Part shown: positions 3,674 through 61,147 of the stretch, one piece after another
Numbering within the stretch: the first letter of the stretch is position 1
Layout: each line of letters opens with the position of its first letter
Virus record (IMG/VR): IMGVR_UViG_3300031857_000140
Coordinates: 2,017 to 66,016 of that record
Origin: a virus
Taxonomy: Duplodnaviria; Caudoviricetes
Strand: one strand, 5' to 3'
Length of the DNA stretch: 64,000 nt
Made by a program: the position numbers and the translations under genes
The notes under the pieces: model-generated
The model's input: only the letters and a program-made list of their open reading frames with translations
What the model was told of the DNA's origin: nothing
The model's database searches: none

Positions 3674-6661
3674 ATGGCAAACACTTTTAACCATAACGGT
3701 AAAGTAGTAATCACTGATGGTGGTAACGTAGGCATTGGTACGACTAGTCCAACAAGACTATTAGAAATCTCAGCAACAAATCCACAATTCAGCATCAAGT
3801 CAACAAGTGCAACAGGATTTAGTGAATTGTATTTTGGTGACAATACTGCCGACAATGGATGGATTGGGTATGCACATAATGGAGATTATATGTATTTCGG
3901 AACTAATAACTCCGAACGAATGCGCATCACTGCCGCAGGTAACGTCGGCATTGGTACGACTAGTCCAACCTATAAACTAGAGGTTGTTGGCGGAAGTGTT
4001 AACACTCAGATAGCAAGATTCATAACAGCTGATTACCCAACACACAGTGTTGGACTTGGTGTTGATGCCCAATCTACATATTGGGGAGCATCTATCTTCC
4101 AAGATGATGTCAAAAGATTTACTGTAGATAGTACTGGAGGTATTCTTGTTGGAGGAAACTATCAAGGCTCAGATGCTCCAGCTAATGGAGCTGCTATTGA
4201 GGGTAGCGTAGGTATTGGTACGACGAGTCCATCGTATAAATTGGATGTATTTGGAGGATTTAATGCTGTAACATCCGGGGTAAATATAACTTACGACAAC
4301 GGTATTCTATACCACGGTAACTACTACCAGATTACTAGTGGAAACAATTACCTATTATACGCAAGAGGAGGAGGAGCTTTACTTTTAGGTAGTGATGATG
4401 TTGAACGTATACGCATCACCAGCGCAGGCAACGTCGGCATTGGGACGACGAGTCCTGTGTCACACGCACCAAGCAGAAGAACATTGGTTGTAGCTGATAC
4501 AGTTAATGGAGCCAACGTAGAGATATGGGGTAATAATGCAGGTGGAAAGTCTATACTTCAAAGTGTAGGTGGAGATACCTATGTAGGTAATCTTGCTAAC
4601 GGTAGTGGAGCTGGAACTACATATATAACGTCTGGGAATGGAAGTACTTATACTACTTTCTTAGCAAACGGAAACGTCGGCATTGGCACGACGACGCCAG
4701 AAGGAAAGCTTCACGTATCAGGAGGTCAGGTTGTTTTAAAGGGTGGGGGAGCCACAGACCAGCAGATAGTTTACAACTTCGCTAGAGAGTATGTAAATGG
4801 AATCTATAACTCTAGTGGTCACTTCAGACTACAAGACAACTCACTAGGTGGAACTGTATATCAATGGGATGGAAGCTCATTCTGTTTTCCGAATGGCAAC
4901 GTCGGCATTGGCACGACGAGTCCAGGGTATAAACTAGAAGTAAACGGAGACATTGGCTTTAGCATTGGCGCTTCATTAAAATGGGGGGGAAATACATACA
5001 TATACGGAGAGAATAATGTCCAAATACAAGCTGTTGTCAATGGCAATACTGGATTATTCATAAACTCATCTGGCAACGTCGGTATTGGTACGACGGCCCC
5101 GGGAGCTCCTCTTCACGTATACAAGTCAGATACATATTCGGCTATTGTTTCAAGAGCAGATTGGAATAGCAGCGTACCAACGAAGCTTGCGCTTGGAAAG
5201 CAATATGGAGTTCTTGCATTCATATCTACCGACTTGGTAGAAACCACAACTGATACTTCTTATATAGCTCTTAACTACAAGAGTGGACTAACAACTTTTG
5301 CTGAGGGGCTTCGTGTTTACAACAACGGCAACGTCGGCATTGGTACGACAAGTCCTGGGGCAAAGCTTGAGGTTACTGATGAGATAAGAGTTTCATCAGG
5401 CGGTTCCTACGCATCGTTTACTGCTCGCAATACTGGCACTACTGGCGGCGGTGGCTTGCTTGGTTATCAGAATGGTGTAGCAAACGCATTCTTTGGCGTC
5501 GCTGGTTGGTATCTCGGGAATTCCGACACTGGTATTATCGTTGGAACAGATAGTTCAAGCAGACCGATTCGTTTCTACACGAATACCGAGCGTATGCGTA
5601 TTTCCGGTGATGGCAACGTCGGCATTGGGACGACGAGCCCATCTTACAAATTGCACCTAGTTGGGGGTAGTGAATATATAGATGGGGGTCTTGGTCCAAT
5701 TAACAGTTCGCCATATACATCAGCTAATCGTTTGATATTTAATAATGACTATAACGATGTAGCAAGAGGGCCAAATAAGATAACGCTATACGATGGCAGC
5801 TGGCTTGGAGGCTTTGGTATTCACAACAATACATTGGCATACTATTCGGGCGGAATTCACAACTGGTATCTAGCCTCGGATGCCACAAATGCTGTTTCGC
5901 TTATGACCCTTACGTCGGGTGGTAGTCTAGGCATTGGGACGACGAGTCCTTCCGAAAAGCTCCACGTAGACGGAAACGTAATCGTAACCTACAACAACTC
6001 GTTCCAAGGCATCAACAGCATCGGCAACAAGGCTATCCTGGCTCGGGTGTCTCCGACTACCGGAATCATCAACTACGCTGAGTACGCAACAGCTACCAAC
6101 CTCAACGGCTTTGTTCTGGGTTCCGACGACGCACGAGTCAAAGGAGACATCGCAACAGACTCTCTTGACTTCATCACCAACACATCCAGTCGGATGTTTA
6201 TCAACTCAAGTGGTAACGTTGGTATTGGAACTACAAGTCCAAGCTATAAGCTAGACGTTGTTGGAGACTCTCGCATCACCTCTGGTTCCTTAGGCGTGGG
6301 CGTAGCTCCTAACGCCACCGACGGACGGATTGACGCATCCAACGACATCGTAGCCTACTCTACCTCTGACCAGCGCCTCAAGGAGAACGTAACGCCAATC
6401 GAGAACGCACTCGAGAAGGTGAAGACGCTCACTGGTGTGGAGTTCGACTGGAAGGAAGATACGGCTCACGTCCACGGCTACCACGGACACGACGTAGGTA
6501 TCATTGCTCAGGACGTGCAGGCTGTTCTCCCAGAGGCTGTCCGCACCAACGAAAGCGGCTACCTATCTGTACGCTACGAGAAGATGATTGCGCTCTTGAT
6601 TGAGGCAAACAAAGAACTTGCTGCTCGTGTTGAATTTTTGGAACAAAAACTTAAACAGTAA
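3674..6661 (+). CDS. Tail fibre 2 with C-terminal peptidase S74-type intramolecular chaperone
   Basis: 11 GNVGIGTTSP repeats; C-terminal SDQRLKENV...GIIAQDVQAVLPEAV...VRYEKM plus coiled coil. Confidence 0.88.
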   Translation: MANTFNHNGKVVITDGGNVGIGTTSPTRLLEISATNPQFSIKSTSATGFSELYFGDNTADNGWIGYAHNGDYMYFGTNNSERMRITAAGNVGIGTTSPTYKLEVVGGSVNTQIARFITADYPTHSVGLGVDAQSTYWGASIFQDDVKRFTVDSTGGILVGGNYQGSDAPANGAAIEGSVGIGTTSPSYKLDVFGGFNAVTSGVNITYDNGILYHGNYYQITSGNNYLLYARGGGALLLGSDDVERIRITSAGNVGIGTTSPVSHAPSRRTLVVADTVNGANVEIWGNNAGGKSILQSVGGDTYVGNLANGSGAGTTYITSGNGSTYTTFLANGNVGIGTTTPEGKLHVSGGQVVLKGGGATDQQIVYNFAREYVNGIYNSSGHFRLQDNSLGGTVYQWDGSSFCFPNGNVGIGTTSPGYKLEVNGDIGFSIGASLKWGGNTYIYGENNVQIQAVVNGNTGLFINSSGNVGIGTTAPGAPLHVYKSDTYSAIVSRADWNSSVPTKLALGKQYGVLAFISTDLVETTTDTSYIALNYKSGLTTFAEGLRVYNNGNVGIGTTSPGAKLEVTDEIRVSSGGSYASFTARNTGTTGGGGLLGYQNGVANAFFGVAGWYLGNSDTGIIVGTDSSSRPIRFYTNTERMRISGDGNVGIGTTSPSYKLHLVGGSEYIDGGLGPINSSPYTSANRLIFNNDYNDVARGPNKITLYDGSWLGGFGIHNNTLAYYSGGIHNWYLASDATNAVSLMTLTSGGSLGIGTTSPSEKLHVDGNVIVTYNNSFQGINSIGNKAILARVSPTTGIINYAEYATATNLNGFVLGSDDARVKGDIATDSLDFITNTSSRMFINSSGNVGIGTTSPSYKLDVVGDSRITSGSLGVGVAPNATDGRIDASNDIVAYSTSDQRLKENVTPIENALEKVKTLTGVEFDWKEDTAHVHGYHGHDVGIIAQDVQAVLPEAVRTNESGYLSVRYEKMIALLIEANKELAARVEFLEQKLKQ

Positions 6662-7086
6662 TGGCACTTCCTAGCTCGGGCCCTTTAAGCATCAACGACA
6701 TCAGAGTAGAGCTTCAGCAGTCACAGGCCAACAGCTCTCTCCGGTCGTTGTCTAATATCGCAGGATTCTCAACTCCTGATGCTATATCTGAGTTCTATGG
6801 ATACTCGTATGCCAACTATAACTATTTCCAGATAAATAGCGTTGGATATACCTCTTCGTCAGAGGCTTGTACATTTGGTGACGCAGACAATCTAACCCTG
6901 TACTTTGCAGGAAGTGGAGGAACCCAGGCTTGTCCGTCAATAGGAACATACGTATTCACAGACACCGCACTAACAAACAAGTTTGACGGAGGCGATAAGT
7001 GGTATAAATCGAGTGAATGTAATGCGTCGTATTACATACTTAAGTTTCCAAACACTGGACTTGTAGAGAGTTCAGAGGGTTGTTAG
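6661..7086 (+). CDS. Putative fibre-tip/adhesin protein
   Basis: MALPSSGPLSINDIRVEL N-terminus typical of genes following S74 fibres; Cys-containing AT-rich C-terminus. Confidence 0.5.
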   Translation: MALPSSGPLSINDIRVELQQSQANSSLRSLSNIAGFSTPDAISEFYGYSYANYNYFQINSVGYTSSSEACTFGDADNLTLYFAGSGGTQACPSIGTYVFTDTALTNKFDGGDKWYKSSECNASYYILKFPNTGLVESSEGC

Positions 7087-7128
7087 TATTTCGTATATTT
7101 GTCTCACTAATTAGTAAACAAAACACAA

Positions 7129-7800: not shown

Positions 7801-7821
7801 GCAACAGCTAACACTACCGTC

Positions 7822-8207: not shown

Positions 8208-8596
8208 TGGCAACAGCTACCAAAAAGAACCCGGCTCTTTGGAAACGAATAGTGTCCCAAGTGAAGTCTGGCACCAAGGGTGGGGACGCTGGGGAGTGGA
8301 GTGCGAGGAAGGCCCAATTAGCCGTTTCGTTATACAAGAAAGCAGGAGGCTCTTACGCGGGACCCAAGCGCTCGACTTCTCTCTCAAAGTGGACCCAGCA
8401 GAACTGGCGTACAAAAAGCGGTAAGCCTTCTTCTGAAACTGGAGAGCGCTATCTCCCGGAGAAAGCCATAAAGTCCCTGTCCTCAGCGGAATACGCAGCA
8501 ACGACTCGTGCCAAGAGAGAAGGAACAGCTAAAGGAAAGCAGTTTGTTGCTCAGCCAAAATCTGTTGCTAAGAAGGTCAAAAAGTTTCGTTCTTAA
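8207..8596 (+). CDS. Small basic hypothetical protein
   Basis: GG..GEWSARKAQL..LYKKAGGSY pattern; start overlaps upstream stop. Confidence 0.7.
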   Translation: MATATKKNPALWKRIVSQVKSGTKGGDAGEWSARKAQLAVSLYKKAGGSYAGPKRSTSLSKWTQQNWRTKSGKPSSETGERYLPEKAIKSLSSAEYAATTRAKREGTAKGKQFVAQPKSVAKKVKKFRS

Positions 8597-8667: not shown

Positions 8668-9768
8668 ATGAACTCAGTTGAATCACAAATGGAGCAGGCT
8701 CTCACGAGCGCAGGATTTTCGGTGTCGGACACTCCGCCCGCAGCCCTGATGAATGAGGCCGCTGAACAATTTACGGAGCCCGCTCCGGTGCAAACCGAAG
8801 CAGCTCCGCAAGCGCAGGAATCGACTCAGCCTGCAGGAGCACCTGAGCCACAAGCTCAGGGGCAACTGGAAAGTGAGCCGAGTTCTTTGACAGAACCCCT
8901 AAGCGGGGAACAATTCATGCCGTTCCCGGATGAAGTCTTTGGCGAAACGCCTGCTGACGATTATTCGGAAATGAGCGATGAGGAGTTCTCCGATATGTAT
9001 GCTCAACTTGACCCTCGCATTCAAGTTATCGCAGACTTCGTTGCCCAGACTGGTCGTTCTCCGGAAGATTGGTTTCGTTATCAGGCTCTAGACCCATCCG
9101 AAATGGATGATTTGACCGCGGTACGAATCAACCTTGCTAGTGAATATCCCAATCTGTCCAGTGAAGAGGTGAACCTGCTGTTGTCCAGCAAATACAAGAT
9201 GGACGACTCGGTTTACAGCGAAGATGAAATTCGCCTCGGTAACCTGCAGCTAAAGCTTGACGCTACAAAAGCTCGTACGCAAATGGAACAGCTCCGTGAG
9301 CAGTTCGGTTTGCCTGAGTATGAAGCACAGTCTACGCAAGAGTTTGAAAGTCCTTTCGACGAAGCGTGGTTTCGGGGAATGCACCAGTCTCTAGGTGAGC
9401 TCGGACAGATTTCGTTCGACTTACCCAATGGAAAAGAGTTCAACTTTGGTGTACCGGAATCATACCGAAACGAATTGTTCAGAGAGAACGCGAACATAGA
9501 CACGTACTTCGATAAGTACATTGACGACCAAGGAAACTGGGACCATGACCTTTGGAATATGCACCGCACGGTAACGGATAACCTTCCGAACATCTTGCAG
9601 AATATATACCAACAGGGCCTTAGCGACGGACAGCGAGCAATCGTTGAACGTGCTGCTAACGTGGACGCATCGACCCCAGTCGCCCCTGTACAAAACCAAA
9701 AAAGCGCCTTAGCCGAGCAAGTCCTAGACGCGCTCGGACGGCAACAAACCTTAACCTTTAAAATCTAA
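8668..9768 (+). CDS. Putative capsid scaffolding protein
   Basis: Very acidic, disordered N-terminus; immediately upstream of the major capsid gene; TACATTTG at 8637. Confidence 0.7.
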   Translation: MNSVESQMEQALTSAGFSVSDTPPAALMNEAAEQFTEPAPVQTEAAPQAQESTQPAGAPEPQAQGQLESEPSSLTEPLSGEQFMPFPDEVFGETPADDYSEMSDEEFSDMYAQLDPRIQVIADFVAQTGRSPEDWFRYQALDPSEMDDLTAVRINLASEYPNLSSEEVNLLLSSKYKMDDSVYSEDEIRLGNLQLKLDATKARTQMEQLREQFGLPEYEAQSTQEFESPFDEAWFRGMHQSLGELGQISFDLPNGKEFNFGVPESYRNELFRENANIDTYFDKYIDDQGNWDHDLWNMHRTVTDNLPNILQNIYQQGLSDGQRAIVERAANVDASTPVAPVQNQKSALAEQVLDALGRQQTLTFKI

Positions 9769-11241: not shown

Positions 11242-12063
11242 ATGACTACTGAACAAGCCCCTACCACCTCCAAGCGAGGTCCCCGCGTCATTGACGCACC
11301 AGCTCCAACAGCTAAGCGTGGAGTGCCCGTTATCAAGCGGGAGCAAGCACCGAGCCTACAGAAAATCTATGAGATTCCTTACGGCGGCGGTATCGTTTGC
11401 AAAATCCGTTCTGAAGCCACTGTATACGACAAGGAAACCAGACAGGTTCGCGGTATCCGTTACTGCCCTAACGAGCCCAGCGTATACACTGACGAACAGA
11501 GCCACAACGCTCGCCGTGAGCACATCCTATTCCGTAATGGAATGTTGATTGTTCCGGAAGACAAACCTAACCTCGCTGCATTCCTTGACCTGCACCCACA
11601 GAACCGTGCTAACGGTGGGGAGCTGTTCATCCTCGTTGAGCGCAGCCGTGACGTACAATTACAGGTTGACCGTGAGTTCTTGCTGCACGATGCAGTTGCT
11701 CTTGTGCGCAACAAGGAGCTCGACGAGCTACTTGCTGTTGCCGTAGCTCTTGGCATCAACATCCAACAGAAGACTATTGAAATTCGCCGCGAGCTTCTCA
11801 CAGAAGCTAAGGCGAATCCAGAGGCCTTCATTAAGATGTTTGACGACCCACGTGTCAAGTGCCGTTCTGCCGTTATCCAAGCCAATGATTTCCAAATCAT
11901 TTCGCTGCGTCCCGATGGAGTGTTCTGGTTTGATAGCGGTCGCCTGATTCTGTCTGTTCCTGCCGGTCAGGACCCGACGGACATCATGGTTCGTTTCTGC
12001 CTCACTGAGAAGGGAGCATCTGTATATGAGGAAATTGTTTCTCGTTTGGAAAAGTTGTCGTAG
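11242..12063 (+). CDS. Hypothetical protein downstream of the capsid gene
   Basis: 273-aa ORF with genome-typical codon usage; position as in crAss-like virion modules. Confidence 0.7.
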   Translation: MTTEQAPTTSKRGPRVIDAPAPTAKRGVPVIKREQAPSLQKIYEIPYGGGIVCKIRSEATVYDKETRQVRGIRYCPNEPSVYTDEQSHNARREHILFRNGMLIVPEDKPNLAAFLDLHPQNRANGGELFILVERSRDVQLQVDREFLLHDAVALVRNKELDELLAVAVALGINIQQKTIEIRRELLTEAKANPEAFIKMFDDPRVKCRSAVIQANDFQIISLRPDGVFWFDSGRLILSVPAGQDPTDIMVRFCLTEKGASVYEEIVSRLEKLS

Positions 12064-12176: not shown

Positions 12177-12929
12177 ATGGCAAGTGTAGAAAGAGTATAC
12201 CGTGCAGTAAAGGACATAGCGAACAAAGACCAGCGTGGATTCATCACGCCGGCCATCTTTAACGAGTTCGCAGGCATCGCTCAGATGAACGTTTTCAACC
12301 GTTTATTTGACGAGATGGGCCTTTCTGTACGTATGCGCCGCAGTGGCGCAGATGCCCAGCGACAGTTCGCTAAGGCAAAGAAAATAGAGGAAGACCTCTC
12401 AACGTTTTCCAAGAAAGCAACGCTGAATCTTGTTGCTGGAGTAGCAGATAAGCCGTCTGACTTTGCTCGTGTTATCGCAATCACAACTCCGGGTAAGTAC
12501 GTGCTAGGAAACTACCAGCAGTACCAGGTACAGATTGTGTACAATACCGAGCACATGGACAGAATCTTAACGAGCGACCTGTCTCGTCCCACGAGCTCTG
12601 CCCCCGTTGCTTTGATTGGAAACCAGATTGAGGTGTTCCCAAATACGAATACCAGCATCACGTCTGTTGTACTGCGCTACTACAAGCTTCCGCAGGGAAT
12701 CGTTCCAACTACTGGAGCGAAGACCGCCTCTGCTCCAACATACGGATATACCTCGGTAGTTCCCGGTGTTGAGCTGTACTCTGCAGCCAACAGCGTTGAC
12801 TTTGAGATGCCTGAGCAGTACTTCACCGAATTGGTAACGGAGATTTTGACGCTTGTAGGCGTCAATCTCCGCGACAGCGATGTGTACAACTACGGAGCAA
12901 GTGAAACCACCAAAGACGAAGCTCAATAA
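12177..12929 (+). CDS. Tail ring / head-tail adaptor protein
   Basis: IANKDQRGFITPAIFN..A..AQ and LRYYKLP motifs; position. Confidence 0.65.
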   Translation: MASVERVYRAVKDIANKDQRGFITPAIFNEFAGIAQMNVFNRLFDEMGLSVRMRRSGADAQRQFAKAKKIEEDLSTFSKKATLNLVAGVADKPSDFARVIAITTPGKYVLGNYQQYQVQIVYNTEHMDRILTSDLSRPTSSAPVALIGNQIEVFPNTNTSITSVVLRYYKLPQGIVPTTGAKTASAPTYGYTSVVPGVELYSAANSVDFEMPEQYFTELVTEILTLVGVNLRDSDVYNYGASETTKDEAQ

Positions 12930-13675: not shown

Positions 13676-16600
13676 ATGCCGTCTATTGATAAGCTCATAC
13701 CGCGCTATCTCAACACTGATGACGATGAGCGTCTCGTTAAGAGCGTAGAAATGACGGATGCGCAGAACTTGCGCATCTCTGTCGACGTTGAACGTGATGC
13801 GCTTGTAATCAAAAATGCTTATGGAAACGTAGCGAGGTCTAGCACGCTTGAGAACGGCTCCATGCCAGCGGGAACCAACAAGGCTCTCGGCTCTGTTGCT
13901 GACGACACCACCAATCAGATTTACTTCGCTGTGTACAACAGCGGTGGAAACCACTTGATTGTGCGCTACGATGCCAACGGAAAGAAGGCATACAAGGTAT
14001 ACCAAAGCTCAGTACTGCAGTTTTCATTGGACTCGTTTGTGCAGATGTCTATCGTGCGCAACTCCAACACGGACATCCTTCTCTACCTCAACGACGGCCT
14101 TAGCGCTCCGAAGAAGATAAATGCCACCAAGGCAGAGCAGAGCCTTACGGGCAATGGAGGATACCCTTCTACGTTCCTTAATGGAACTAGTGAGGAGAAG
14201 CTGTTGTACATCACGGTGGCTAAGCAGCCACCTTTGGCGCCGCCCACAATCACGTTCGTAAACAACCCATCGTACCCGCAGAACGAAATGTTCGAGAAGA
14301 ACTTTCAGTTTGCATACCAGTATGAGTACATCGACGGTGAGCAGAGCGCTCTAAGCCCATACTCTCGTTTGGCGGTATCGGCATCGCAGTTGAAAGACGG
14401 ATTCATCAATACCGGACAGAAGAACTTCTTCAACCAGATTAACGTAACGGTAGCCAACAACAAGGGCGACGTTAGCAAAATCAAGGTATATGCTCGTCGT
14501 GGAGACCGCGATGCGCCTTTCTTCTTGATTGCTACGCTGTTGAATAACCCTTCTGGTGGAACGCAGGTAGTGAACTTCCGCGATGACCAGAGCTTCATTC
14601 CTTTGGCAGCGGAGGTGCAGGACAAGCGTTACGACAACGTACCACAGGTTGCTGACTCTCAGGCTATATGCAGTAGCCGCCTCTTTTATGGCGGCTACAC
14701 CGAGGGCTACCCGAACCTATCTGTTGAGGGCACGAGCGTCACTCCGAACTACAACGAGAAGACCACGCCCATCGACATAGATGTTCAGTTCGTTTCAAAT
14801 CCAGCTTCTGCGTTTGATGACCCTACTGAGCAGAACAGATACTTCTCAATCAACTACGCAAACATTCCTGCTGTTGTAACGGAAGACTCTTCGGTATTCT
14901 TGTCCTTTTCTTGGGACGACGGATTTGTTGTCCTAAAGAATAGGCTTGGAGACAACGACAACTACAACTTCTGGATGCAGGGTGGGGCTCCGAGCGCAAA
15001 CGACATTTCTGTTAAGCCAGGTGGCGTTGGTTTGTTTTCAACTATGTCTGCGGCAGAAAAGGCTTCAGCCATCTCTGGTATTAGAATACCGGCGCCAAAC
15101 CAAGGAGAGCCCGGCCCAAATGCCGATGGACCACTCAACTGTCCGCCAACTATCCGTTTCATCAAGCAAAAAGGAACGAGCGAGACAGAAGACCGTGAAG
15201 TACCCATTGAGGCTATACGCAATGGAATCAAATTGCTTACCAGCGGAATTCAAGTGCGTAAGCGTATTGACATTCCAGCTGGGACTACTCGACTTCGCGT
15301 AATACAAATCATCGAAGGACAGATATTGGGTCGCTATCCAATCTTAGCTAATCCTCAGCCTGGAAACGGTGGATTCAGTACGTTTACCACGTCTGATGCT
15401 ACTGCTGGAACTGTTGAATCTGCAGCATTCAAGGGAAAGGGATATGCCTATATCTGGCCTGTATCTGAGGGTTCTACTTCTACGTTAAAGACCTATAAGG
15501 TCCTAATTGATACCCTTACTATTTCCATTGACAAGTTTGTCTTTGGTCAAAAGCAAACGGATGTTATTGACCCAGATTCTCCAACAGCTCAGTTTGACTT
15601 CATCGAGGGTCCATCAAACTCAAAGGACCAGAACAACCGGATTATCATCAACCAATACGTAAGTAATGGTCGTGGTCAAGAGGTAAAGCTCGGTCCTGGA
15701 TATGCTCAGGGTGAAACTCGCGACGGTCAAGTGCTACGCACCAATGCATCTGTTACGTCGGGTGGTTGCTTCCTTATCCCCCGTGATAAGATGGACGGCC
15801 AGCGCTGCTTCAAGTCGGGCTCAGCTCACCAGCTTGGCATCGTGTACTTCGATGACCGTGGTCGTGCAGGTGGCGTTCAGCGAGTAGGAACAGCAGAAAT
15901 CCTGCACACCAATAACCGCGCCACACAGAACAACCTTGACGGATTCGCAAACATCGTTATGCGAATCAAGCACAAGCCACCCGTATGGGCAAAGAGATAC
16001 TCTCCGGTATACGCTGGAGTTGGCTCTGTGGTTAACAAGGTTCAGTACAGCGTAGGTGGTGCATACCTCGCATTCAACGACCAATCCAATCAGGGTTCAT
16101 TTGGTGCAAACCAGAGCATCTATCTGGCGTTAAATACCCTGCAAGGCAAGGAGAACTCGTACACCAACCAGTTTGGTGCCATGATTGAATACGGCTTTGC
16201 CATTGGTGATAAGGTGCGCATCGTCCGTTACGGAAACAACCAAAAGGTTCAGTACGTATTCAAAGTCGTTAAGACCGTCAACCTGATTGACGACCTGGCC
16301 ATCAACCCGCTGTTAGATAGAAGCTCTAAGGCTTCTATCCAAAACACCACGGGTACGTTCTTGGTCATTGAGGAAAACGAAGGAGCTACTGGCTTCAATG
16401 CGAAGAGTATCCTTAACAACAACAGCAATTGGAACGACGATTGCGTTATTGAGATATTCCGAGAGAATAAGGCCTTTGACAGCAAGCTATACTACGAGAT
16501 TGGAACTAGCCTTCCCATCACGAGCGGTGTTCACGCTTCTGAGCGTGTAACAGGCTCAAGCTCGGTAAAGGTTACTGCTCAGAGCGCAAATACAGTAACG

Positions 16601-37521: not shown

Positions 37522-37694
37522 TCCCTATCCTTGTTGAAGGTATAGGCAACAGCTAAGAATCCTCCGAGCGCTACGAACGCCAGCTTTGTTGTTGCATCAT
37601 CGGCCACCAATAGACCGATAACGGATAGTATTGTACCGAAAAGGTATGTTTTCTTGTTGACCATTACTCGTCGCTTCTATCTGATGGTTCGTCG

Positions 37695-48159: not shown

Positions 48160-48206
48160 GGAAGGCCAACAGCCAACCAGCAGGATTGTGACAAATTCTT
48201 ATAGAG

Positions 48207-48847: not shown

Positions 48848-48984
48848 CGTCCTTGTGCGTTATAGGGTTTGGAATAGTTCTTAGAGCCTTTGTTATTAGA
48901 AGCCTTCTTAGAGTGCTTTCCGCGCTTCTTGCTCTTGCTTACAAACTTTGCAACAGCTTGTAACTTACCTGTCTTACCAGCCAT
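48844..48984 (-). CDS. 46-aa basic protein (GKHSK...KPYNAQGR)
   Basis: Hand-translated; stop overlaps endolysin start. Confidence 0.6.
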   Translation of the reverse strand: MAGKTGKLQAVAKFVSKSKKRGKHSKKASNNKGSKNYSKPYNAQGR

Positions 48985-49933: not shown

Positions 49934-49950
49934 ACAACAGCTACTAAAAG

Positions 49951-50895: not shown

Positions 50896-51011
50896 TGGCT
50901 AAGAGCACTAAGAAGCGAGCAGGAGCTGTTGTCGGCCAGAAGAAGGTCAGCAAAGAGCGTGCAGCACAAGGAAAGACAAACTACGAACTACTAAACAAAC
51001 TAAGCAAATGA
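50895..51011 (+). CDS. 38-aa basic peptide
   Basis: Hand-translated; overlapping start/stop on both sides. Confidence 0.6.
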   Translation: MAKSTKKRAGAVVGQKKVSKERAAQGKTNYELLNKLSK

Positions 51012-51230: not shown

Positions 51231-51454
51231 AACTCAAGAAGCTAGATAAGAACATCATGGTGAAAGCCCCAGAAGGCCACCACTGGATGAACGACGGAAG
51301 CGGTCGCTTCTACCTGATGAAGCATTCTGGTAAGTTCGTCAAGCATCCTGGCGCAAGCCTCGAGGCTCCGTTCCGCCTAGTGACCCACGATAAGCCATCA
51401 ACAGCTAAAGAGCAGATGGCTATTGGTGCTCTGATGAAGGCAAAGAAAGCCTAA
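51227..51454 (+). CDS. Small hypothetical protein
   Basis: KAPEGHHWM...YLMKH pattern. Confidence 0.6.
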   Translation: MKLKKLDKNIMVKAPEGHHWMNDGSGRFYLMKHSGKFVKHPGASLEAPFRLVTHDKPSTAKEQMAIGALMKAKKA

Positions 51455-51913: not shown

Positions 51914-52882
51914 ATGGGAAGTCTTAGCGGAACTAAAATTAAAGACACCTTCGGGCTGCTGTTGAAGCTCGCCACCTCTACGGTGTCTGCGTCTGAGCAA
52001 GTCGTACAGGATGGTGAAGGAACCAACACAGCTCTTAAGCTCTCCACAGACACGGTAGAATCAACGGGTGACTTCAAGTGCACGGGAACCGTCACCACGT
52101 CCACCACAGACGTGGAGGCGTTGATGCTGAGCTCAACGGGTGTGTTTGTAAAGCGCAACCTCAGCACCAATCCAATCGGAACAACGTCGGTAACGGCCAA
52201 CTCACCGCTCTCTGCCACAGGAAGCACCATCGGCGTACTTCCTGCCAGCTCGCTGACCCCACTTACGGAGGCGACCGCTGCAAACGCAGATAAGTTCTTG
52301 ATTTGGGACGAGTCAGCAAGCTCATACAAGTACATTACTCTTGTGGAGCTGTCCGACTATGTGGTCAATACCGGAGCTACTGTTGTGCCTAATATGTTTG
52401 TGGCCAAGCCACAGGCTACCGCAGCACTCGGTACCGCGGCTACAATGATTAGCTTCGCAGAGCTTTACAGCGCTGCAGCAACTGGAATGGTTACAGAGGC
52501 CACCTCTTCAGTAGCCTACGGCGGAGCAACGGCAAGCATCTCTTTGGTTGACGCAACAAACATCCGAGACAACATCCGACTCAGCTCGGAAGGTATGTAC
52601 GACATTACTGCTTGCGTAGAATATACTATCTCTTCAGGAACCCCGGACATCACCGTACAGCTCTACATTAACGATGGAGCAAGCAGCGTGGTGCTCATAG
52701 AAGACATCGAAGCCACCAAGACTGGAAAGCACGTGGTGACTCTTAGGTACTTCTACTATGCACCAAGTGGCGATGTTCCAGTGGATATAGCCCTGCGATG
52801 CTCTGCAACATCGGCTGCAACGCTTACTAAAAACACAACGGTTACAGTTACTAACTTAGGCACGTTATCATTGCCAGCGTAA
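51914..52882 (+). CDS. Putative virion fibre/decoration protein
   Basis: Ser/Thr/Ala-rich; L.GTKIKDT...LLK N-terminus; beta-rich C-terminal domain. Confidence 0.5.
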   Translation: MGSLSGTKIKDTFGLLLKLATSTVSASEQVVQDGEGTNTALKLSTDTVESTGDFKCTGTVTTSTTDVEALMLSSTGVFVKRNLSTNPIGTTSVTANSPLSATGSTIGVLPASSLTPLTEATAANADKFLIWDESASSYKYITLVELSDYVVNTGATVVPNMFVAKPQATAALGTAATMISFAELYSAAATGMVTEATSSVAYGGATASISLVDATNIRDNIRLSSEGMYDITACVEYTISSGTPDITVQLYINDGASSVVLIEDIEATKTGKHVVTLRYFYYAPSGDVPVDIALRCSATSAATLTKNTTVTVTNLGTLSLPA

Positions 52883-53443: not shown

Positions 53444-54081
53444 TGAAACCGATTAGATTCTTTGTTGTAAAAGTACCCAAAGCCGTCAACGATACCATTG
53501 AGATTGCCGGCCAAGAAATGTATCTGGACACTCGCTTCAACGAGTTCGCTCACCGCGCATTTTCAGGTGAGGTGGTGGGTGTGCCGGAAAGATACAAGAC
53601 AGGCGTGTCCGTAGGGGACACGCTATACTTCCACCATCACGTGCTGTTGGGTGGAAACCACATGGTATATGGTAACCAACAGTTTAATGAAACAAAACAC
53701 AAACGAGGTCAGTTCATCTTTGAAGACAAAGACCTTTATTACGTCGGATGGGATGGAGGTTACGACCCACATAGCTGTCAGGCCTACGCATACAAGAGCA
53801 AGGAGACGGGTGAAGTACGTCTGCTTGGCCATTGGATATTCCTGGTACCAGCAAAGCAGGAAGACGAGCTAACAAGCAAGGTTCTTGAACTAGTTCAAAA
53901 CAAGAAGCCATACAACCAGTATGGCTATGTGCGCTTTGGCTCAGACCGTTTGGAGGAGCTCGGCCTCAAGCCGGGCGACAAGGTATTCATCCAAAAGAAT
54001 GCCGACTACGAAATGGAGATTGAAGGCGAGAAGCTGTATCGTGTCCTGTTATCGCACATCTATGCGCAAGTCCAAGAGTAG
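53443..54081 (+). CDS. Tandem GroES-like co-chaperonin protein
   Basis: MKP...VV.V, GEVVGVP...VSVGDTLYF and G.V..G...LKPGDKVF.....EMEIEGEKLY. Confidence 0.6.
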   Translation: MKPIRFFVVKVPKAVNDTIEIAGQEMYLDTRFNEFAHRAFSGEVVGVPERYKTGVSVGDTLYFHHHVLLGGNHMVYGNQQFNETKHKRGQFIFEDKDLYYVGWDGGYDPHSCQAYAYKSKETGEVRLLGHWIFLVPAKQEDELTSKVLELVQNKKPYNQYGYVRFGSDRLEELGLKPGDKVFIQKNADYEMEIEGEKLYRVLLSHIYAQVQE

Positions 54082-54388: not shown

Positions 54389-56485
54389 ATGGCTGGATTA
54401 GTCGAAATAGAAGACGAGGTAATCGTCAACATCTGTCCGCGAGGAACGGCCGGGGACGTTGTTACCTATGGAGACCTAGCCATCCAGCTTCCCAAGCAAC
54501 CAAGAAAGCAAGACATCTTATTCCACGATAAGCCTAAAGAGCAGCAGATGTGGGCGCGTCAGGAGATGCCTGACGAGCTTCGTCGCATCAACTCAATGGA
54601 GGAGTGGATGACTATGCCTGAATCCTTTAGAAAGAAATACACCAACTACATCCAACAAGAGTATGAGCGCAGACGCACCGGACTATGGTTCTTCAACAAC
54701 GGAGTACCTACTTACATCACCGGAAACCACTACTTTTTTCTGCAATGGGCCAAGATTGACGTGGGTTACCCGTCCTACCTTGGGTTCCAGCGAGAGCTAT
54801 TCATACATCTTGAAGCCTGCAATGTAGACCCAAGGTCTCTAGGGCAGGTGTACGTCAAGTGCCGACGCTCTGGATACACCAACATGAGCGCCTCTACCAT
54901 CATCAACGAGGCTACTCAGGTGAAAGAGAGGCTGTTGGGTGTGATGTCAAAGACAGGTAGCGACGCACAGGAGAACATCTTCATGAAGAAGATAGTCCCC
55001 ATCTACAAATCACTGCCGTTTTTCTTCAAGCCAATCCAGGATGGTACCACCAACCCACGGATGGAGCTCGCCTTCCGCGAGCCATCGAAGCGAATCACCA
55101 AGACCAACAAGACATCGCAGCGCGGCGAGGCCCTCAACACGGTAGTCAACTGGAAGAACACCACCAACAACGCCTATGACGGTGAAAAGCTGCACGTCCT
55201 GTACTTAGATGAGGCCGGCAAGTGGGAAAAGCCTACCGACATCCGTGAATCGTGGCGCATTCACCGCACCTGTCTGCTCGTTGGTCGTAAGATTGTAGGA
55301 AAGGCCATCGTTGGTTCTACGGTAAACCCGCTTGACCGCGGCGGCCGACAGTTCAGAGACCTGTATGAAGCCAGCAACCCAGCGGAGCGCAACGAAAACG
55401 GACGCACCAAGAGCGGATTGTACTCAATTTTCATACCAGCATACGAAGCACTGGAAGGATTCTTTGACAAATACGGTCAGCCCATTGTTGATGACCCAGA
55501 GGTACCAGTTTTTGGTATAGACGGAGAGAAGATTACCATCGGAGCACGCACATTCCTAAAGAACGAGCGTAAAGCGCTGGCAAACGACAGCTACGAACTC
55601 AACGAGGTCATACGTCAGTTCCCATTCACCACAGCAGAAGCGTTTCGCGACAGCTCTAAGGCGTCGCTCTTCAACGTGCAGAAGATATACGAGCAAATCC
55701 AGCACAATCAAGAACTGTACCCAAATCCTGTGCTCGTTGGGAACTTCGTTTGGAAGGATGGAAAGCAAGATACGGAGGTGTATTTCAAGCCAGACCCAAA
55801 CGGGAGATGGCGCGTGGTATGGATGCCGCCGCATGAGCTCAGAAACAAGCAAGGTCCTCAGAATGATTGGCTAGGAGTAGGAGGCGTTGACTCCTACGAC
55901 ATTGACGTAACTGTTGACGCAAGGAGCTCAAAGGGCGCCTGCCATATTTACAATAAGTTCAACCTGCAGTACCCAGCCAATATGTTTGTGGCGGAGTACG
56001 CATCACGTCCGCCTCTCGCCAAAATATTCTACGAGGATGTGCTGATGGCTGCAAAGTTCTACGGCTACAGCCTTCTTATTGAGAACAACAAATATGGAAT
56101 TGCTCGCTATTTTGAACAGCGTGGATACGACCATTATCTGATGGGTAGGCCTGAGCACCTAAGCTCAGGCTACGGCAGCACGACAAAAACAAAGGGTATT
56201 CCGTCAAACTCACAAGACATTATTCAGGCTCACGCACAGGCAATCGAAGCATACATCCATGCACACGTAGGCCTTAACGAAGAGACGCTGCAATTTGGTA
56301 AGATGTACTTTGAGAGGACATTAGAGGATTGGATTAACTTCAAGGTCGATGACCGTACCGCTTTTGACTTGTCAATCTCCAGCGGACTTGCGCTTTTAGC
56401 AGCGCAAGGAGCGACGGCAAAGAAAGAAAAAACCGACTTTAACGTGAAAAAGTTTTTTCGTCCGGGTCGCGTCATCTTACGCTGA
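54389..56485 (+). CDS. terL: Terminase large subunit
   Basis: KCRRSGYT Walker A, LYLDEAGK Walker B, GST, GVDSYD nuclease, LIENN. Confidence 0.92.
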   Translation: MAGLVEIEDEVIVNICPRGTAGDVVTYGDLAIQLPKQPRKQDILFHDKPKEQQMWARQEMPDELRRINSMEEWMTMPESFRKKYTNYIQQEYERRRTGLWFFNNGVPTYITGNHYFFLQWAKIDVGYPSYLGFQRELFIHLEACNVDPRSLGQVYVKCRRSGYTNMSASTIINEATQVKERLLGVMSKTGSDAQENIFMKKIVPIYKSLPFFFKPIQDGTTNPRMELAFREPSKRITKTNKTSQRGEALNTVVNWKNTTNNAYDGEKLHVLYLDEAGKWEKPTDIRESWRIHRTCLLVGRKIVGKAIVGSTVNPLDRGGRQFRDLYEASNPAERNENGRTKSGLYSIFIPAYEALEGFFDKYGQPIVDDPEVPVFGIDGEKITIGARTFLKNERKALANDSYELNEVIRQFPFTTAEAFRDSSKASLFNVQKIYEQIQHNQELYPNPVLVGNFVWKDGKQDTEVYFKPDPNGRWRVVWMPPHELRNKQGPQNDWLGVGGVDSYDIDVTVDARSSKGACHIYNKFNLQYPANMFVAEYASRPPLAKIFYEDVLMAAKFYGYSLLIENNKYGIARYFEQRGYDHYLMGRPEHLSSGYGSTTKTKGIPSNSQDIIQAHAQAIEAYIHAHVGLNEETLQFGKMYFERTLEDWINFKVDDRTAFDLSISSGLALLAAQGATAKKEKTDFNVKKFFRPGRVILR

Positions 56486-56523: not shown

Positions 56524-58959
56524 ATGCAAAGAGATTATACAGCAAAAGGCCAGTCTACATTCCCCGACCCGTTAGCGAGTACGGAGGAAAAAATGGCAAA
56601 AGGCTATGGCCTTCAATATGCCAAGGCCATGTATGCACAGTGGATTGGCGTTGACTACAACAATTCACTTTACGGTCGTCGGTTCAATGAGATGCAGAAC
56701 AACCGCGACTACGCACAGGGTACTCAGGATACGTCAATCTACCGACAAATCCTAAGTTCTCTTGATGCAAACAACGGTGACGGAACGATGCTTACGCTGG
56801 ACTATACTCCAGTGCCCATCATCCCGAAGTTTGTTCGCATCGTAGTAAACAAGATTCTTTCTCGTAAGCCGTACCCACAGGTACAGGCTATTGACCCATT
56901 GTCTCGTTCCGAGAAAGACAAGAAGAAAAATTCAGCTGTCCTGCGCATCGAAAACAAGTCGATGCTTCAGGAGGCTAAGTCGCTTGGTCTTTCGCTGAAG
57001 GTAGACCCGGACGCTTTGCCCGACACCCCAGAGGAAACGGAAATCTTCCTGGACACCAACGTCAAGACTGACGCAGAAATCGCTGCGCAGCTCGCCACGG
57101 AGATGACCCTCACGTGGAATGACTTTGACGACGGCATCTACCGTCGTTGCGTGGAGGACTTGGTTACCTGCGGTATCGCTGTTACCAAGCGTACCAACGA
57201 CCCTAACTACGGAATCCGTGAGCAATATGTAGACCCTGCATATTTCATCCATAACTACACGGATGACCCCAACATGGCGGACCTCACCTACGCTGGACAC
57301 TTCCGCACGGTGACCATCATGGAGCTCAAGCGTTTGGCTGGCAATCAGTTTACGGAAGAGCAGTACCAGCAGATTGCTCAGACGGTTATGAACCGCTACG
57401 GAAACGACCCGCTGCGCTACAGCACTCAAGGGTACAACTACGAGACCATCAGCAATCGCTACCGCTACGGATACGATGAGTTCAAGGTGCAGATTATGGA
57501 CTTTGAGTTCATGTCTGTTGACGACATCGTATTCGAGAAGAAGGAGTCCAAGTTTGGCAACGTAGGATTCTACTACAAGGGCAGCACCTACAACGCTCCG
57601 CAGCAGTCGGTGTTTGACCGCGAGGCAGTGTACATGAAGAACGCCACCGTCTACGGCGGTATCTACATTGTGGGCACAGACTTCATGTTCAACTACGGAG
57701 TTCAGAAGAACATCCCGAAGAACGTACACGACATCGCTCGTGCTCGTCTTTCGTACTCTTGCGTGGCCACCAACCTGCGTGGCATGATTCCAAAGTCAAT
57801 GGTGTCAAGCATCATCGGCTTTGGTGATATGCTTCAAATCACGCACCTGAAGCTTCAGCAGTCTATCGCCAAGGCTAAGCCTGATGGTCTTATCATCGAC
57901 ATCGAAGGACTGGAGAACGTACAGCTCGGTCGTGGTGGTGAGCTCCAGCCTTTGGAGATTCAAGACATCTATGAGCAGACGGGTGTATTCTACTACCGCT
58001 CTAAGAATCCAGAGGGCGGGTTCCAAAACCCGCCTGTGCGCGAAATCGGAAACGCTATTCGTAACGTAGAGCAGCTGATTGGTTTGTACAACCACTACCT
58101 GCGCATGATTCGTGACGCTACGGGAATCAACGAAGTCGTTGATGCCAGCACTCCTAAGTCGGAGGCATTGGTTGGTGTTCGTGAGCAGGCTATCGCCGCT
58201 TCGAACAACGCTACCTACGACATCACGCACGCTGCTCAGGTACTCTACAAGAAGGTATGCGACGACATCGTACGATGCCTTCAGGTCATTCCGCCAAAGA
58301 GCATCATCTACAAGGTATACACTAACGCCATTGGTGAGACCAATATGTCTGTTCTAACATCGTTTGATAACCTGTCGATGTACAACTTCGGCGTGGTGGT
58401 CATGGGAGAGATGGATGACCGCTCTAAGATTTACCTTGAGCAGAACATCAACATGGCCCTTTCTCAAAAGGAGATTGACCTTGAAGATGCGATTGCTATC
58501 CGACAGCTAAGAGACCCGGAGCAGGCAGAGCGCTTGCTTGTGGTGCGCCGTAAGAAGCGCATGAAGCAGCGGATGGAAGAGGCTCAGCAGCAGGCTCAGT
58601 TCCAAGCTGAGGCCAACGCTCAGGCTTCACAGGTAGCTGCTCAGTCAACGATGCAGGCAGACCAGGTGAAGGCTCAGCTTGAGGCTCAGAAGATTCAGCT
58701 TGAGACCCAGGCCAAGGCGCAGCTCATGGAGCTGCAGCACCAGTACGACATGGAGCTTCAGAAGCTCAAGAACGAAGCTGTTGTGGGCTCACAGATGGTC
58801 AAAGGTCAGACGCAAGAAAGCCTTGACAACATGAAGGAGAACCGCAAGGACGCTCGTATCAACAAGCAGGCAGAAGCGCAGTCTAAGCTGATTGCACAAC
58901 GCAAAGGGGAAGAGGGCGCCATGCAGCCCGACCTAGGCGAAGCACTAATGAATGTTTAA
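56524..58959 (+). CDS. Portal protein
   Basis: About 810 aa after terL; PIIPKFV..VV, TGINE; C-terminal Gln-rich coiled coil. Confidence 0.85.
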   Translation: MQRDYTAKGQSTFPDPLASTEEKMAKGYGLQYAKAMYAQWIGVDYNNSLYGRRFNEMQNNRDYAQGTQDTSIYRQILSSLDANNGDGTMLTLDYTPVPIIPKFVRIVVNKILSRKPYPQVQAIDPLSRSEKDKKKNSAVLRIENKSMLQEAKSLGLSLKVDPDALPDTPEETEIFLDTNVKTDAEIAAQLATEMTLTWNDFDDGIYRRCVEDLVTCGIAVTKRTNDPNYGIREQYVDPAYFIHNYTDDPNMADLTYAGHFRTVTIMELKRLAGNQFTEEQYQQIAQTVMNRYGNDPLRYSTQGYNYETISNRYRYGYDEFKVQIMDFEFMSVDDIVFEKKESKFGNVGFYYKGSTYNAPQQSVFDREAVYMKNATVYGGIYIVGTDFMFNYGVQKNIPKNVHDIARARLSYSCVATNLRGMIPKSMVSSIIGFGDMLQITHLKLQQSIAKAKPDGLIIDIEGLENVQLGRGGELQPLEIQDIYEQTGVFYYRSKNPEGGFQNPPVREIGNAIRNVEQLIGLYNHYLRMIRDATGINEVVDASTPKSEALVGVREQAIAASNNATYDITHAAQVLYKKVCDDIVRCLQVIPPKSIIYKVYTNAIGETNMSVLTSFDNLSMYNFGVVVMGEMDDRSKIYLEQNINMALSQKEIDLEDAIAIRQLRDPEQAERLLVVRRKKRMKQRMEEAQQQAQFQAEANAQASQVAAQSTMQADQVKAQLEAQKIQLETQAKAQLMELQHQYDMELQKLKNEAVVGSQMVKGQTQESLDNMKENRKDARINKQAEAQSKLIAQRKGEEGAMQPDLGEALMNV

Positions 58960-58968
58960 CTTTGTGAT

Positions 58969-59660: not shown

Positions 59661-61147
59661 TGGCTATTAAGTTTGTATCGTCCATTAACCTCAACCAGAA
59701 TGAGCTGCAAAATGCGGTCATTCAGAACTTGGCTTCTCCTCCAGGGAGTCCGGTAGAGGGACAAGTTTACTACGACTCCTCCGCGGGTGATAAGTCAATT
59801 TACTTCTGGGACGGAACCCAGTGGATTGACGTAGGTGGTGACATCCGAAGCGTAACCGCAGGAGCTGGTCTTACCCAGACTGGTACTCGTGACATTACCA
59901 TCAACGTAGGTCAGGGTACTGGTATCTTGGTTAACCCAGACAACGTACAGCTGTACCACCTTGGTCTTGAGAACCTCACCGACCCTAACGCTGACCGAAT
60001 CTTCTTCTGGGACGACTCAGCAGGTGCTTCTCAGTGGCTTGAGGTATCTACCGCTACGGGTATCAATATCAGCGGTACGACCCTTCAGCTTGGTTCTATC
60101 CCCAATAGTTCACTCACGAACTCAAGTGTAACCTACACCGCTGGTGCTGGTTTGACGGGTGGTGGAACTGTTGCTCTTGGTTCAAGCGCTACGCTTACCG
60201 TTGGTGCTGGAACGGGTATCACGGTCAACGCTGACGACGTAGCCCTTAAGAACGCAGGAAGCCTAAACAACAACGCGGTAACCAAGTGGGATTCGTCCAA
60301 CGGCCAGCTTGTTAACTCCATCATTACGGACGACGGTTCAACGGTAACGATTGCTGGCAACCTCGACGTAAACGGAACGACGACGACCATCGACAGCACG
60401 ATTGTATCTATTGGTGACAATATGATGCAGTACGCCAACGCTAACGTGGCCAACAGCGTCGACATTGGTTTCTACGGAAACTACGTCAACAGCGGAACGA
60501 AGTACGCTACGTTCTTCTACGACGCTTCTGTAAGCTCTGTAAGTGAGGCTGTCTTTACTCTTGGCCAGACATCAACTGAGCCAACGTCTACCGTTAGTGG
60601 CCTTACTGTTGGTCGCCTTGTTGCTAACCTAACTGGTGATGTAACTGGTAACGCCTCTACTGCTACTGCACTTCAGACGGCCCGCACCATCAGCATCACG
60701 GGAGACGCCACGTGGACGGTAACGTTTGACGGAACAGCTAACGTAACCTCTGGTCTTACGCTCGCTAACTCTGGTGTTACTGCCGGAACGTATGGTAGCG
60801 CTTCTAGCGTTGCTCAGGTTACGTTTGACGCTAAGGGACGTGCTACGAGCGCAAGCTCTGTAACAATTGCTATCACGGCATCGCAGGTCACTGACTTCAC
60901 TAGTGCTGTTCAGGCCATCATTGACGGCAGCGGAGCTGTTGCTAACGTAGGTGATGGAAGCAATACCTCTTACGCCATCACTCACAACCTCAATAGCCGT
61001 GACGTGATTGTGCAGGTGTACGATAATGCTACGTATGACACTGTATACACCGATGTTATCCGTACTAGCGTGAATGTTGTCACTGTAACATTTGCTACAG
61101 CACCCGCAAGCAACGCCTACAGGGTCGTTATCCAAAGGGTTTCGTAG
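59660..61147 (+). CDS. Proximal tail fibre protein
   Basis: AG.GL repeats, GDVTGNASTATAL...RTI, GVTAGTYG...DAKGR, ITHNL. Confidence 0.75.
   Translation: MAIKFVSSINLNQNELQNAVIQNLASPPGSPVEGQVYYDSSAGDKSIYFWDGTQWIDVGGDIRSVTAGAGLTQTGTRDITINVGQGTGILVNPDNVQLYHLGLENLTDPNADRIFFWDDSAGASQWLEVSTATGINISGTTLQLGSIPNSSLTNSSVTYTAGAGLTGGGTVALGSSATLTVGAGTGITVNADDVALKNAGSLNNNAVTKWDSSNGQLVNSIITDDGSTVTIAGNLDVNGTTTTIDSTIVSIGDNMMQYANANVANSVDIGFYGNYVNSGTKYATFFYDASVSSVSEAVFTLGQTSTEPTSTVSGLTVGRLVANLTGDVTGNASTATALQTARTISITGDATWTVTFDGTANVTSGLTLANSGVTAGTYGSASSVAQVTFDAKGRATSASSVTIAITASQVTDFTSAVQAIIDGSGAVANVGDGSNTSYAITHNLNSRDVIVQVYDNATYDTVYTDVIRTSVNVVTVTFATAPASNAYRVVIQRVS

Follow-up and report, generated by a model that had tools for sequence, protein, structure and literature searches.

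Why does the genome of a tailed phage carry one short word dozens of times, and what would read it? The question is raised by a virus of the Caudoviricetes recorded in IMG/VR as IMGVR_UViG_3300031857_000140, a 66,016-bp sequence with direct terminal repeats, of which positions 2,017 to 66,016 were analysed (64,000 nucleotides, called here the window). Window 62340-64000 is a second copy of window 1-1661, which leaves a unique genome of 62,339 bp; this length had correctly been used in the preliminary description of the DNA, which reported an excess of the octamer CAACAGCT/AGCTGTTG. In this genome the octamer and its heptamer core, CAACAGC, are over-represented independently of coding, are both conserved and gained between relatives, and recur in phages with a common type of tail fibre. 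We tentatively favour the reading that CAACAGC, with a preference for CAACAGCT and, on one of the strands, for CAACAGCTA, is a selected DNA-level signal that is set by the host and is most likely Chi-like.

A search of both strands returned every one of the 37 octamer copies reported before and no others, 26 on the + strand and 11 on the - strand. Initially it was thought that about two copies would be expected by chance, an underestimate given how frequent the component tetramers are. In 100 dinucleotide shuffles the octamer had a mean of 3.44 copies (largest 9), an order-3 Markov model predicted 5.7, and three codon-preserving shuffles of 300 replicates each (synonymous within genes, synonymous genome-wide, and dinucleotide-preserving third-base swaps) gave 7.1-10.2, so that realistic nulls lie at 3-10 copies and the 37 observed stand at z 13-18 against the codon-preserving ones. 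The core of the signal is CAACAGC, of which there are 74 copies (40 +, 34 -) in 62,339 bp, where a uniform composition would give 7.6 and the order-3 Markov model 20.4 (z 11.9, the genome's top 7-mer by z-score); the codon-preserving shuffles gave 18.1-24.7 copies, the highest of these means coming from the third-base swaps. Synonymous-codon shuffling, proposed earlier as the procedure that might reproduce the count, reached at most 16 octamers and 36 heptamers. The enrichment of 37 against 2 was thus overstated, and the real effect is about 4-5 fold for the octamer and 3-4 fold for the heptamer. No single-mismatch variant of CAACAGC exceeds 31 copies. The core is followed by T 37 times, by A 19 times, by G 15 times and by C three times, no base preference is seen upstream, and the flanks are random except for this following base. 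Counted on a single strand, CAACAGCT is the commonest octamer (26 copies), while the 9-mer CAACAGCTA is strand-specific (14 +, 0 -). The densities are 11.9 CAACAGC and 5.9 CAACAGCT per 10 kb, that is one heptamer per ~0.84 kb and one octamer per 1.7 kb, and the spacing between sites is indistinguishable from random (coefficient of variation 0.87 vs 0.98; 12% of random sets are equally even).

On the + strand, copies of the form CAACAGCT(A) lie at 6087-6094, 7802-7809 (intergenic), 8211-8218, 11306-11313, 16725-16732, 18330-18337, 32824-32831, 33055-33062, 37547-37554, 40440-40447, 44811-44818 (intergenic), 49547-49554, 49935-49942 (intergenic) and 51399-51406, and the remaining + copies of CAACAGCT at 6729-6736, 15582-15589, 21533-21540, 25677-25684, 26419-26426, 26727-26734, 28472-28479, 34448-34455, 39329-39336, 43200-43207, 48434-48441 and 48951-48958. 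The - strand copies are found at 5029-5036, 14199-14206, 20296-20303, 21650-21657, 23039-23046, 27993-28000, 30339-30346, 41997-42004, 50924-50931 (intergenic), 58776-58783 and 60934-60941. CAACAGC followed by a base other than T occurs on the + strand at 439-445 (repeated at 62778 in the wrapped part), 3586-3592, 6013-6019, 12788-12794, 13936-13942, 16420-16426, 20275-20281, 24216-24222, 29335-29341, 29755-29761, 48167-48173 (intergenic), 48415-48421, 60451-60457 and 60487-60493. On the - strand such copies lie at 1580-1586 (repeated at 63919 in the wrapped part), 9177-9183, 11734-11740, 14536-14542, 14870-14876, 19918-19924, 23524-23530, 23866-23872, 25195-25201, 25372-25378, 25938-25944, 37988-37994, 41163-41169, 42082-42088, 42730-42736, 43248-43254, 43923-43929, 47040-47046, 49566-49572, 51958-51964, 53643-53649 and 54931-54937, and a further - strand CAACAGC at 25378-25384 overlaps the copy at 25372-25378 by one base.

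Is the excess a by-product of coding? By the rough gene calls made in this analysis, on which frame and intergenic assignments rest, the 74 sites comprise 32 in sense (xxC AAC AGC 22, xCA ACA GCx 9, CAA CAG Cxx 1), 37 in antisense (GCT GTT Gxx 22, xxG CTG TTG 15) and five between genes (7802, 44811, 48167, 49935 and 50925), and the octamer alone is 17 times sense and 20 times antisense. The sites occupy four of the six reading frames, in agreement with the earlier statement that the octamer occurs in genes on both strands, in several frames (ATA, NSF, QQL, KLL, AVA) and between genes at 7802 and 49935. The excess therefore acts at the level of DNA and is not a coding by-product, since synonymous shuffles stay far below 74 and the sites fall in four frames, sense and antisense. 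A promoter, operator or terminator was rejected on the small intergenic share (5/74) and the near balance of sense and antisense (32 vs 37), and a protein-coding repeat on the four frames and the lack of shared flanks. The latter contrasts with a repeat of a different kind in the same genome, GGCAACGTCGGCATTGG(N)ACGACGAGTCC, which is found on the + strand only (window 797-5940 and 10434) and encodes a GNVGIGTTSP-type peptide repeat of two tail-fibre genes, and which is not a DNA signal. When viral contigs were scanned for two octamers within 30 nt, at least 120 loci were found, of which the dense ones are peptide repeats with shared flanks.

Selection on the word was assessed against G001, the closest complete relative of the phage under study (G000; further relatives are designated G002-G005 and G414-G418 as genomes, L001-L080 and L125-L128 as loci), whose large terminase (TerL) is 91% identical and of which 36 kb aligns at 82%. 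G001 has 47 copies of CAACAGC, its second-ranked 7-mer behind a collagen-like repeat. Among 30 aligned G001 sites 24 are intact in G000, as compared with 62 of 177 flanking 7-mers (35%; Fisher p 4.9e-6), and in the reciprocal direction 24 of 43 aligned G000 sites are intact in G001, as compared with 84 of 255 flanking 7-mers (33%; Fisher p 0.0057). All 13 aligned octamer sites of G001 are present in G000, which has 10 extra; since G001 has no private aligned octamer site, we interpret the difference as sites gained, on balance, along the G000 lineage. G000 has 26.4 kb without alignment to G001, and there CAACAGC stands at 11.7 per 10 kb, nearly the 12.0 of its aligned DNA. Because sites are retained better than their flanks, and because unaligned DNA is equally dense, the alignments indicate that the word is both preserved by purifying selection and newly acquired in non-homologous DNA. 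The earlier suggestion of a selected DNA-level signal is in this way supported by three lines: the excess survives codon shuffling, the sites are conserved above flanks, and they accumulate in unaligned DNA.

It is improbable, in our judgement, that the word is a functionless by-product, i.e., of context-dependent mutation, of hitch-hiking with avoided words (GATC is absent) or of amino-acid or codon-pair preferences that the shuffles do not capture. Part of the count is indeed compositional, as the difference between the Markov and uniform expectations (20.4 and 7.6) indicates; most of the sampled bacterial genomes contain CAACAGC more often than its reverse; the relatives G003 and G004 still carry 30 and 29 copies (16.2 expected in G004); and several of the G000 gains are single transitions from CGACAGC. 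A mutation bias, however, would lift neighbouring words as well, yet no one-mismatch variant exceeds 31 copies against 74, the dinucleotide-preserving third-base swaps reach 24.7 only, the sites are conserved well above their flanks, and equally related phages of similar GC content lack the excess.

Which phages carry the word? Relatives were sampled in two ways, as 80 loci by the terminase (54389-56485, +; PHROG 6681, E 6.8e-193), which was also used for orientation, and as further contigs by the C-terminal 299 aa of the tail fibre at 3674-6661 (+), taken as a host-range proxy. Among the terminase-sampled loci solely the closest, L001, L002 (part of G002) and L029 (part of G001), at 90-93% TerL identity, reach 8-11 CAACAGC per 10 kb, and none of the 41 loci at 64-70% identity exceeds 7.1. 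By k-mer ranking no comparably over-represented word was seen in G003 and G004, nor in 50 kb of NC_055854.1, the cultured elemovirus Flavobacterium phage elemoE. G005 has no comparable excess of CAACAGC and an outlier of its own, AGCGGTA (32 vs 10.3 expected), as has G414 (L070 together with L128), where CCTGGA is found 45 times vs 9.4 expected. A sister clade at 78-82% TerL identity (L031, L034, L035, L038, L040, L044, L048, L049, L054 and L125-L127) is enriched 3.5-4.5 fold in ACAGCG, the top dispersed 6-mer wherever collagen-like repeats are absent, with a terminase-sense bias that amounts to 170:110 in the late regions and to 43:11 in the early ones, whose transcription runs in the opposite direction. 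AGCT is wholly absent from this clade, which is therefore unable to carry CAACAGCT. The same clade encodes a DNA methyltransferase (PHROG 757) near the recombination genes (L125 11022-11645, -; L126 1908-2555, +).

The tail-fibre probe, in contrast, found three CAACAGC-rich phages among its four best contigs (G415-G418), which were examined in full. In G415 (TerL 65% identical to G000) CAACAGC has 47 copies vs 15.8 expected and is the first-ranked 7-mer, with 33 of the 47 outside G000-similar DNA; in G417 (TerL 69%) it has 44 vs 16.4 and ranks second, behind the overlapping AACAGCA (38/44 outside such DNA); and in G416, a fragment without TerL, it has 38 vs 15.1 and ranks fourth (33/38 outside). 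The TerL distance of G415 and G417 to G000 is comparable to that of the non-enriched G003-G005, and G415-G417 avoid CATG rather than, or besides, GATC, unlike G000. As judged from these genomes, the word follows the host-range proxy and not phage phylogeny, the restriction-avoidance pattern or any nameable accessory gene, because distant fibre-linked phages are enriched and equally distant relatives found by terminase are not. Tail-fibre similarity is a proxy for host only.

The octamer is unequally divided between the strands, 15:9 where genes run + and 11:2 where genes run -, and since the same strand is favoured under both, its 26:11 bias is not due to transcription. The favoured strand of the octamer and of the 9-mer (26:11 and 14:0) is the terminase-sense strand; the octamer split is 14:6 in G001, with the orientation of G000, and 12:2 in G416, whereas CAACAGC not followed by T is distributed 14:23, opposite to the octamer. 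Five + octamers lie within 48.4-51.4 kb, whereas the 14 kb that follow the terminase start contain none, and this crowding ahead of the packaging genes is a weak hint, suggestive only. No strand switch of the word was seen along the genome. Terminal clustering and a strand switch were not upheld, being weak in G000, unreproduced in G001 and absent from the pooled sister-clade loci. The polar words KOPS (FtsK orienting polar sequences) and AIMS (architecture imparting sequences) orient chromosome segregation and switch strand at origin and terminus; the present word resembles them as a short skewed word, there read by a translocase, and differs in lacking such a switch.

Could the reader be a protein of the phage itself? 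Under this alternative, which we regard as rather unlikely, the word would be a template site of the primase-helicase (29884-31668, -; PHROG 18375, E 1e-127; BT4734-like_N and DnaB_C domains), or a binding or nicking site for the HNH endonucleases or for a 186-aa protein resembling the helix-turn-helix domain IV of DnaA (31966-32526, -; Pfam Bac_DnaA_C, E 4.9e-10). Lagging-strand priming would need a site every 1-2 kb per strand, and 7-mer specificity would force enrichment; CAACAGC has a per-strand spacing of 1.56 kb (+) and 1.83 kb (-), which is roughly as long as an Okazaki fragment and is similar to that of the T7 and T4 primase sites, which recur on the lagging-strand template at ~1-2 kb. 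Moreover, the primase-helicase is the sole replication gene common to all enriched genomes examined, and the shifted word ACAGCG of the sister clade is what would be expected if a fast-evolving phage protein set the specificity. Yet the primase-helicases of the non-enriched G003-G005 and of the enriched G415-G417 are equally similar to that of G000 (53-56% vs 56-60% identity), the missing strand switch is contrary to priming from a bidirectional origin, and known primase recognition sites, as in T7 and T4, are built on trinucleotide cores and have not been described as a genome's most over-represented 7-8-mers. The nicking version would find a parallel in the one-stranded sites of T5 type, which the 9-mer subset (14:0) resembles, while the heptamer stands on both strands (40:34).

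The Bac_DnaA_C protein adjoins the primase-helicase, is strongly diverged even in G001 (26% identity) and is probably an origin binder; it was undetected in the enriched G415-G417, and no iteron-like clusters of sites occur near the replication genes, for which reasons it was largely set aside as the reader. Origin iterons or DnaA-box-like sites were rejected, the sites being dispersed (gap coefficient of variation 0.87), with one 12-nt word-containing pair near the gene of this protein. Like it, the single-strand annealing protein (SSAP), the exonuclease and the amidoligase of G000 were undetected in the enriched G416 and G417, contigs that are 61% and 86% complete by CheckV. Among the functions listed in the preliminary description, priming or binding by a phage protein is the less likely, and a Chi-like site fits best, by precedent and not by demonstration here, because it is the sole one for which a host signal is documented to become the top octamer of a phage.

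That precedent comes from three phages, LLS, P1 and MD8, in which the host Chi is the commonest octamer of the phage, with RecBCD use or protection given as the explanation (PMC12315714). The 23 Chi of LLS occur once per 1.86 kb and 20 of them share an orientation, the 50 of P1 occur once per 1.9 kb, and the 32 of the Pseudomonas phage MD8 all stand on one strand (PMC12315714). The present word is like theirs in being short and non-palindromic, the top octamer, spaced at one per ~1.7-1.9 kb and unexplained by codon usage; overlapping and near-variant words are also frequent, and the sense strand of the packaging genes is preferred. In length it agrees with the Chi of AddAB hosts, which are of 5-8 nt, the B. 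subtilis Chi being a 5-mer (PMC2887965).

Which host would set the signal? The host is very probably a Bacteroidota bacterium, because the cultured phages with related terminases (at most 47% identity) infect Flavobacterium, Cellulophaga, Tenacibaculum and Maribacter, because a Shine-Dalgarno-like 4-mer precedes just 4 of the 77 rough gene calls, and because TATATTTG-type elements lie 20-35 bp ahead of several gene starts. The promoter consensus of Bacteroidetes is TAnnTTTG. Shine-Dalgarno sequences are described as missing in this group (PMC7797042). The TATATTTG-type elements precede + strand genes by this distance at window 7094, 12152, 47602, 49668, 56496 and others, and are nearly missing before the - strand early genes at 28-47 kb, which suggests that early genes may use a promoter type different from that of + strand genes. 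Endolysin and TerL searches for host isolates gave matches solely in contigs of metagenome-assembled genomes (MAGs) of mixed taxonomy.

Under the favoured Chi-like reading the reader would be a host enzyme and its effect protection or recombination. A free double-strand end, arising after injection or from a packaging cut, would be entered by the helicase-nuclease with which the host processes breaks; Bacteroidota use AddAB for this (PMC2887965), as the host in question presumably would. On reading the word in the right orientation the enzyme would stop degrading the 3′-ended strand and switch to RecA loading, and the surviving phage DNA would be channelled to recombination-dependent replication or circularisation. 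The dense supply, with a heptamer every ~0.84 kb, would be understandable if any single site had a low probability of recognition: a single Chi is recognised by B. subtilis AddAB with a probability of 0.13 (PMC4027173), and many copies would therefore be favoured. The Chi of B. fragilis AddAB was described as not yet known in 2010 and once more in 2014 (PMC2887965, PMC4027173). In the literature searched by us no paper was found that treats CAACAGC as a signal or reports what the Bacteroidota Chi is, and a search with the exact word returned just primers and unrelated motifs.

Several observations weigh against a Chi-like function, and the first of them concern the host. Word counts were made in 401 Bacteroidota genomes, again in the five richest, and in four MAGs with phage-like contigs, a small fraction of the phylum, and none of these stood out as a host would. 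Among the 401 genomes the maximum is 4.8 CAACAGC and 0.96 CAACAGCT per 10 kb, against 11.9 and 5.9 in the phage, and in the richest genome (G048, 400 kb) CAACAGC is only the 55th over-represented 7-mer (215 vs 146.9), largely compositional; the true host is probably absent from this sample, and the Chi of MD8 ranks just 43rd in the host of that phage (PMC12315714). For LLS, P1 and MD8 the host Chi is experimentally known and growth depends on RecBCD or RecA. Chi sequences are typically G-rich, and the word is A/C-rich in its favoured orientation; the complement GCTGTTG resembles GCTGGTGG, but the polarity would then be opposite to the lambda case. AGCG(G), the Chi core of Bacillus and Staphylococcus, is contained in the ACAGCG(G) of the sister clade and in the AGCGGTA of G005, and not in CAACAGCT. 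The link to the fibre is itself imperfect: G418 (TerL 46%) has a related fibre (56% identity) and yet is not enriched (20 CAACAGC vs 11.1 expected, 13 of the 20 outside G000-similar DNA), and G415-G417 may be a single lineage, in which case one or two evolutionary events might account for the link.

Further points of the same kind come from the arrangement of the sites. The bias of LLS and MD8 amounts to 87-100% with sites at one end, while here it is 70% for the octamer and none for the heptamer, which is nearly symmetric (40:34), and the octamer is without bias in G415, where the terminase-sense split is 9:12, and in G417, where it is 7:7. Unlike in the three precedents, there is no clear terminal cluster in G000: no convincing terminal clustering was found, and the 5-kb profiles of G000 and G001 are without a clear gradient.

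Lastly, the phage has recombination genes of its own, whereas Chi-rich phages in the lambdoid study were those without a recombination module (PMC12315714). These genes are a PD-(D/E)XK exonuclease of RecE/exonuclease VIII type (33914-34699, -; PHROG 412, E 1.3e-41; Pfam DUF3799), a RusA-like Holliday junction resolvase (29417-29878, -; PHROG 34, E 4.6e-8) and a protein of PHROG 11717 (37777-38310, -), which is probably a Rad52/Mgm101/Sak-like SSAP. An AlphaFold (AF2) model of the last, built from a 32-sequence alignment (predicted local distance difference test score 77.5), matched Mgm101 (E 7.8e-4), Rad52 (E 7.5e-3) and the 80-alpha Sak SSAP in Foldseek, with E up to 2e-2 and template-modelling scores of 0.3-0.4. 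Its homologues carry Pfam PF27148, and in the sister clade the gene stands directly upstream of the exonuclease gene, in the SSAP slot; an Erf-type SSAP is found instead in G003-G005 and the elemovirus and is absent from G000-G002. The lack of a Rec module, once considered as a correlate in support of Chi, was dropped when this protein was modelled as Rad52/Mgm101-like. No RecBCD inhibitor was recognised in the window, most of whose small open reading frames are without a match.

Might other machinery of the host read the word, such as a nucleoid or replication protein, a DNA-uptake system or a defence nuclease that the word disarms as a "passport"? The link to the tail fibre and the independence from phage gene content and restriction-avoidance pattern fit such readers equally, and the near symmetry of the heptamer (40:34) suits a duplex-binding protein better than a translocating one. 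The strand bias of the octamer and 9-mer, on the other hand, implies a directional reader, and we know of no precedent for any word of this class being enriched in phages; on balance this class of explanations appears unlikely. The uptake version was rejected, as the flanks of CAACAGC are random beyond the base after the core, without an extended consensus, and no sampled Bacteroidota genome is enriched to an uptake-sequence-like density. The DNA uptake sequence of Neisseria and the uptake signal sequence of Pasteurellaceae are chromosomal words of 9-12 nt in a competent host, with flanking preferences and about one copy per kb; the present word resembles them in being short, frame-independent, on both strands and at about one per kb, and differs in its flanks, and to our knowledge uptake sequences have not been found to be selected in phages. 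It is likewise doubtful that the word is a host-specific passport for Bacteroidota machinery other than the classical Chi-reading AddAB, e.g., a defence or repair nuclease that spares it. The remaining probability was assigned to readings not listed.

The genes among which the word is scattered may be described briefly. In PHROG and Pfam scans the window encodes, besides the large terminase, a portal, virion proteins of 1,689 and 1,834 aa and tail fibres, and, for replication and other functions, the primase-helicase, the DnaA domain-IV protein, the exonuclease, the RusA-like resolvase, HNH endonucleases and two lysins; none of the products was recognised as a DNA polymerase in these scans. 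Three early proteins are without assignment, structure and family searches against PDB sequences having given no match. A 1,351-aa tail-fibre reading frame spans the wrap point (window 61954-64000, continuing at 1-3670), and the modules are interrupted by two HNH/endonuclease VII-like genes (46770-47207, 61163-61957) and a homing endonuclease gene (47632-48159). Four - strand genes (41974-42882, 42933-44663, 32480-32944 and 28359-29324) encode proteins that resemble a GATase-like protein, an Amidoligase_2-like protein, a gamma-glutamyl cyclotransferase and a glycosyltransferase; the first two labels derive from language-model neighbours alone (scores 0.89-0.98). The set is also present in the sister clade and may form a peptide or amide modification system. 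GATC has 0 copies in G000 vs 218 expected and is also at zero in G001 and G002, and other 4-base palindromes are missing elsewhere: GATC and CCGG in G003 and G004, AGCT and often CTAG in the sister clade, CATG in G415-G417, and GGCC, TCGA or CGCG in further relatives. The missing palindromes read as a strong, lineage-specific signature of restriction avoidance, which implies that the DNA is unmodified.

What would the word mean for these phages and their hosts? On our analysis the finding would be a case of Chi-type enrichment in phages, a kind already known, pending the identity of the reader. Chi sequences are known for few bacterial groups, and CAACAGC(T), together with the words of the sister lineages, would offer concrete and cheaply testable candidates if signals of the hosts accumulate in this way. 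In a conservative version, the phage would reveal the still-unknown Chi of Bacteroidota AddAB; should the reader not be AddAB, the signal would be something new. Under the passport reading, ACAGCG, CCTGGA and AGCGGTA would report the passwords of different uncultured hosts. If the Chi-like reading is true, the Chi-rich strategy would reach past the temperate lambdoid phages that infect Proteobacteria and take in a podovirus-like family with recombination genes of its own, which would complicate the current rule that Rec-less phages alone collect Chi, and k-mer outliers of phages would become a route by which such signals may be inferred for uncultured hosts.

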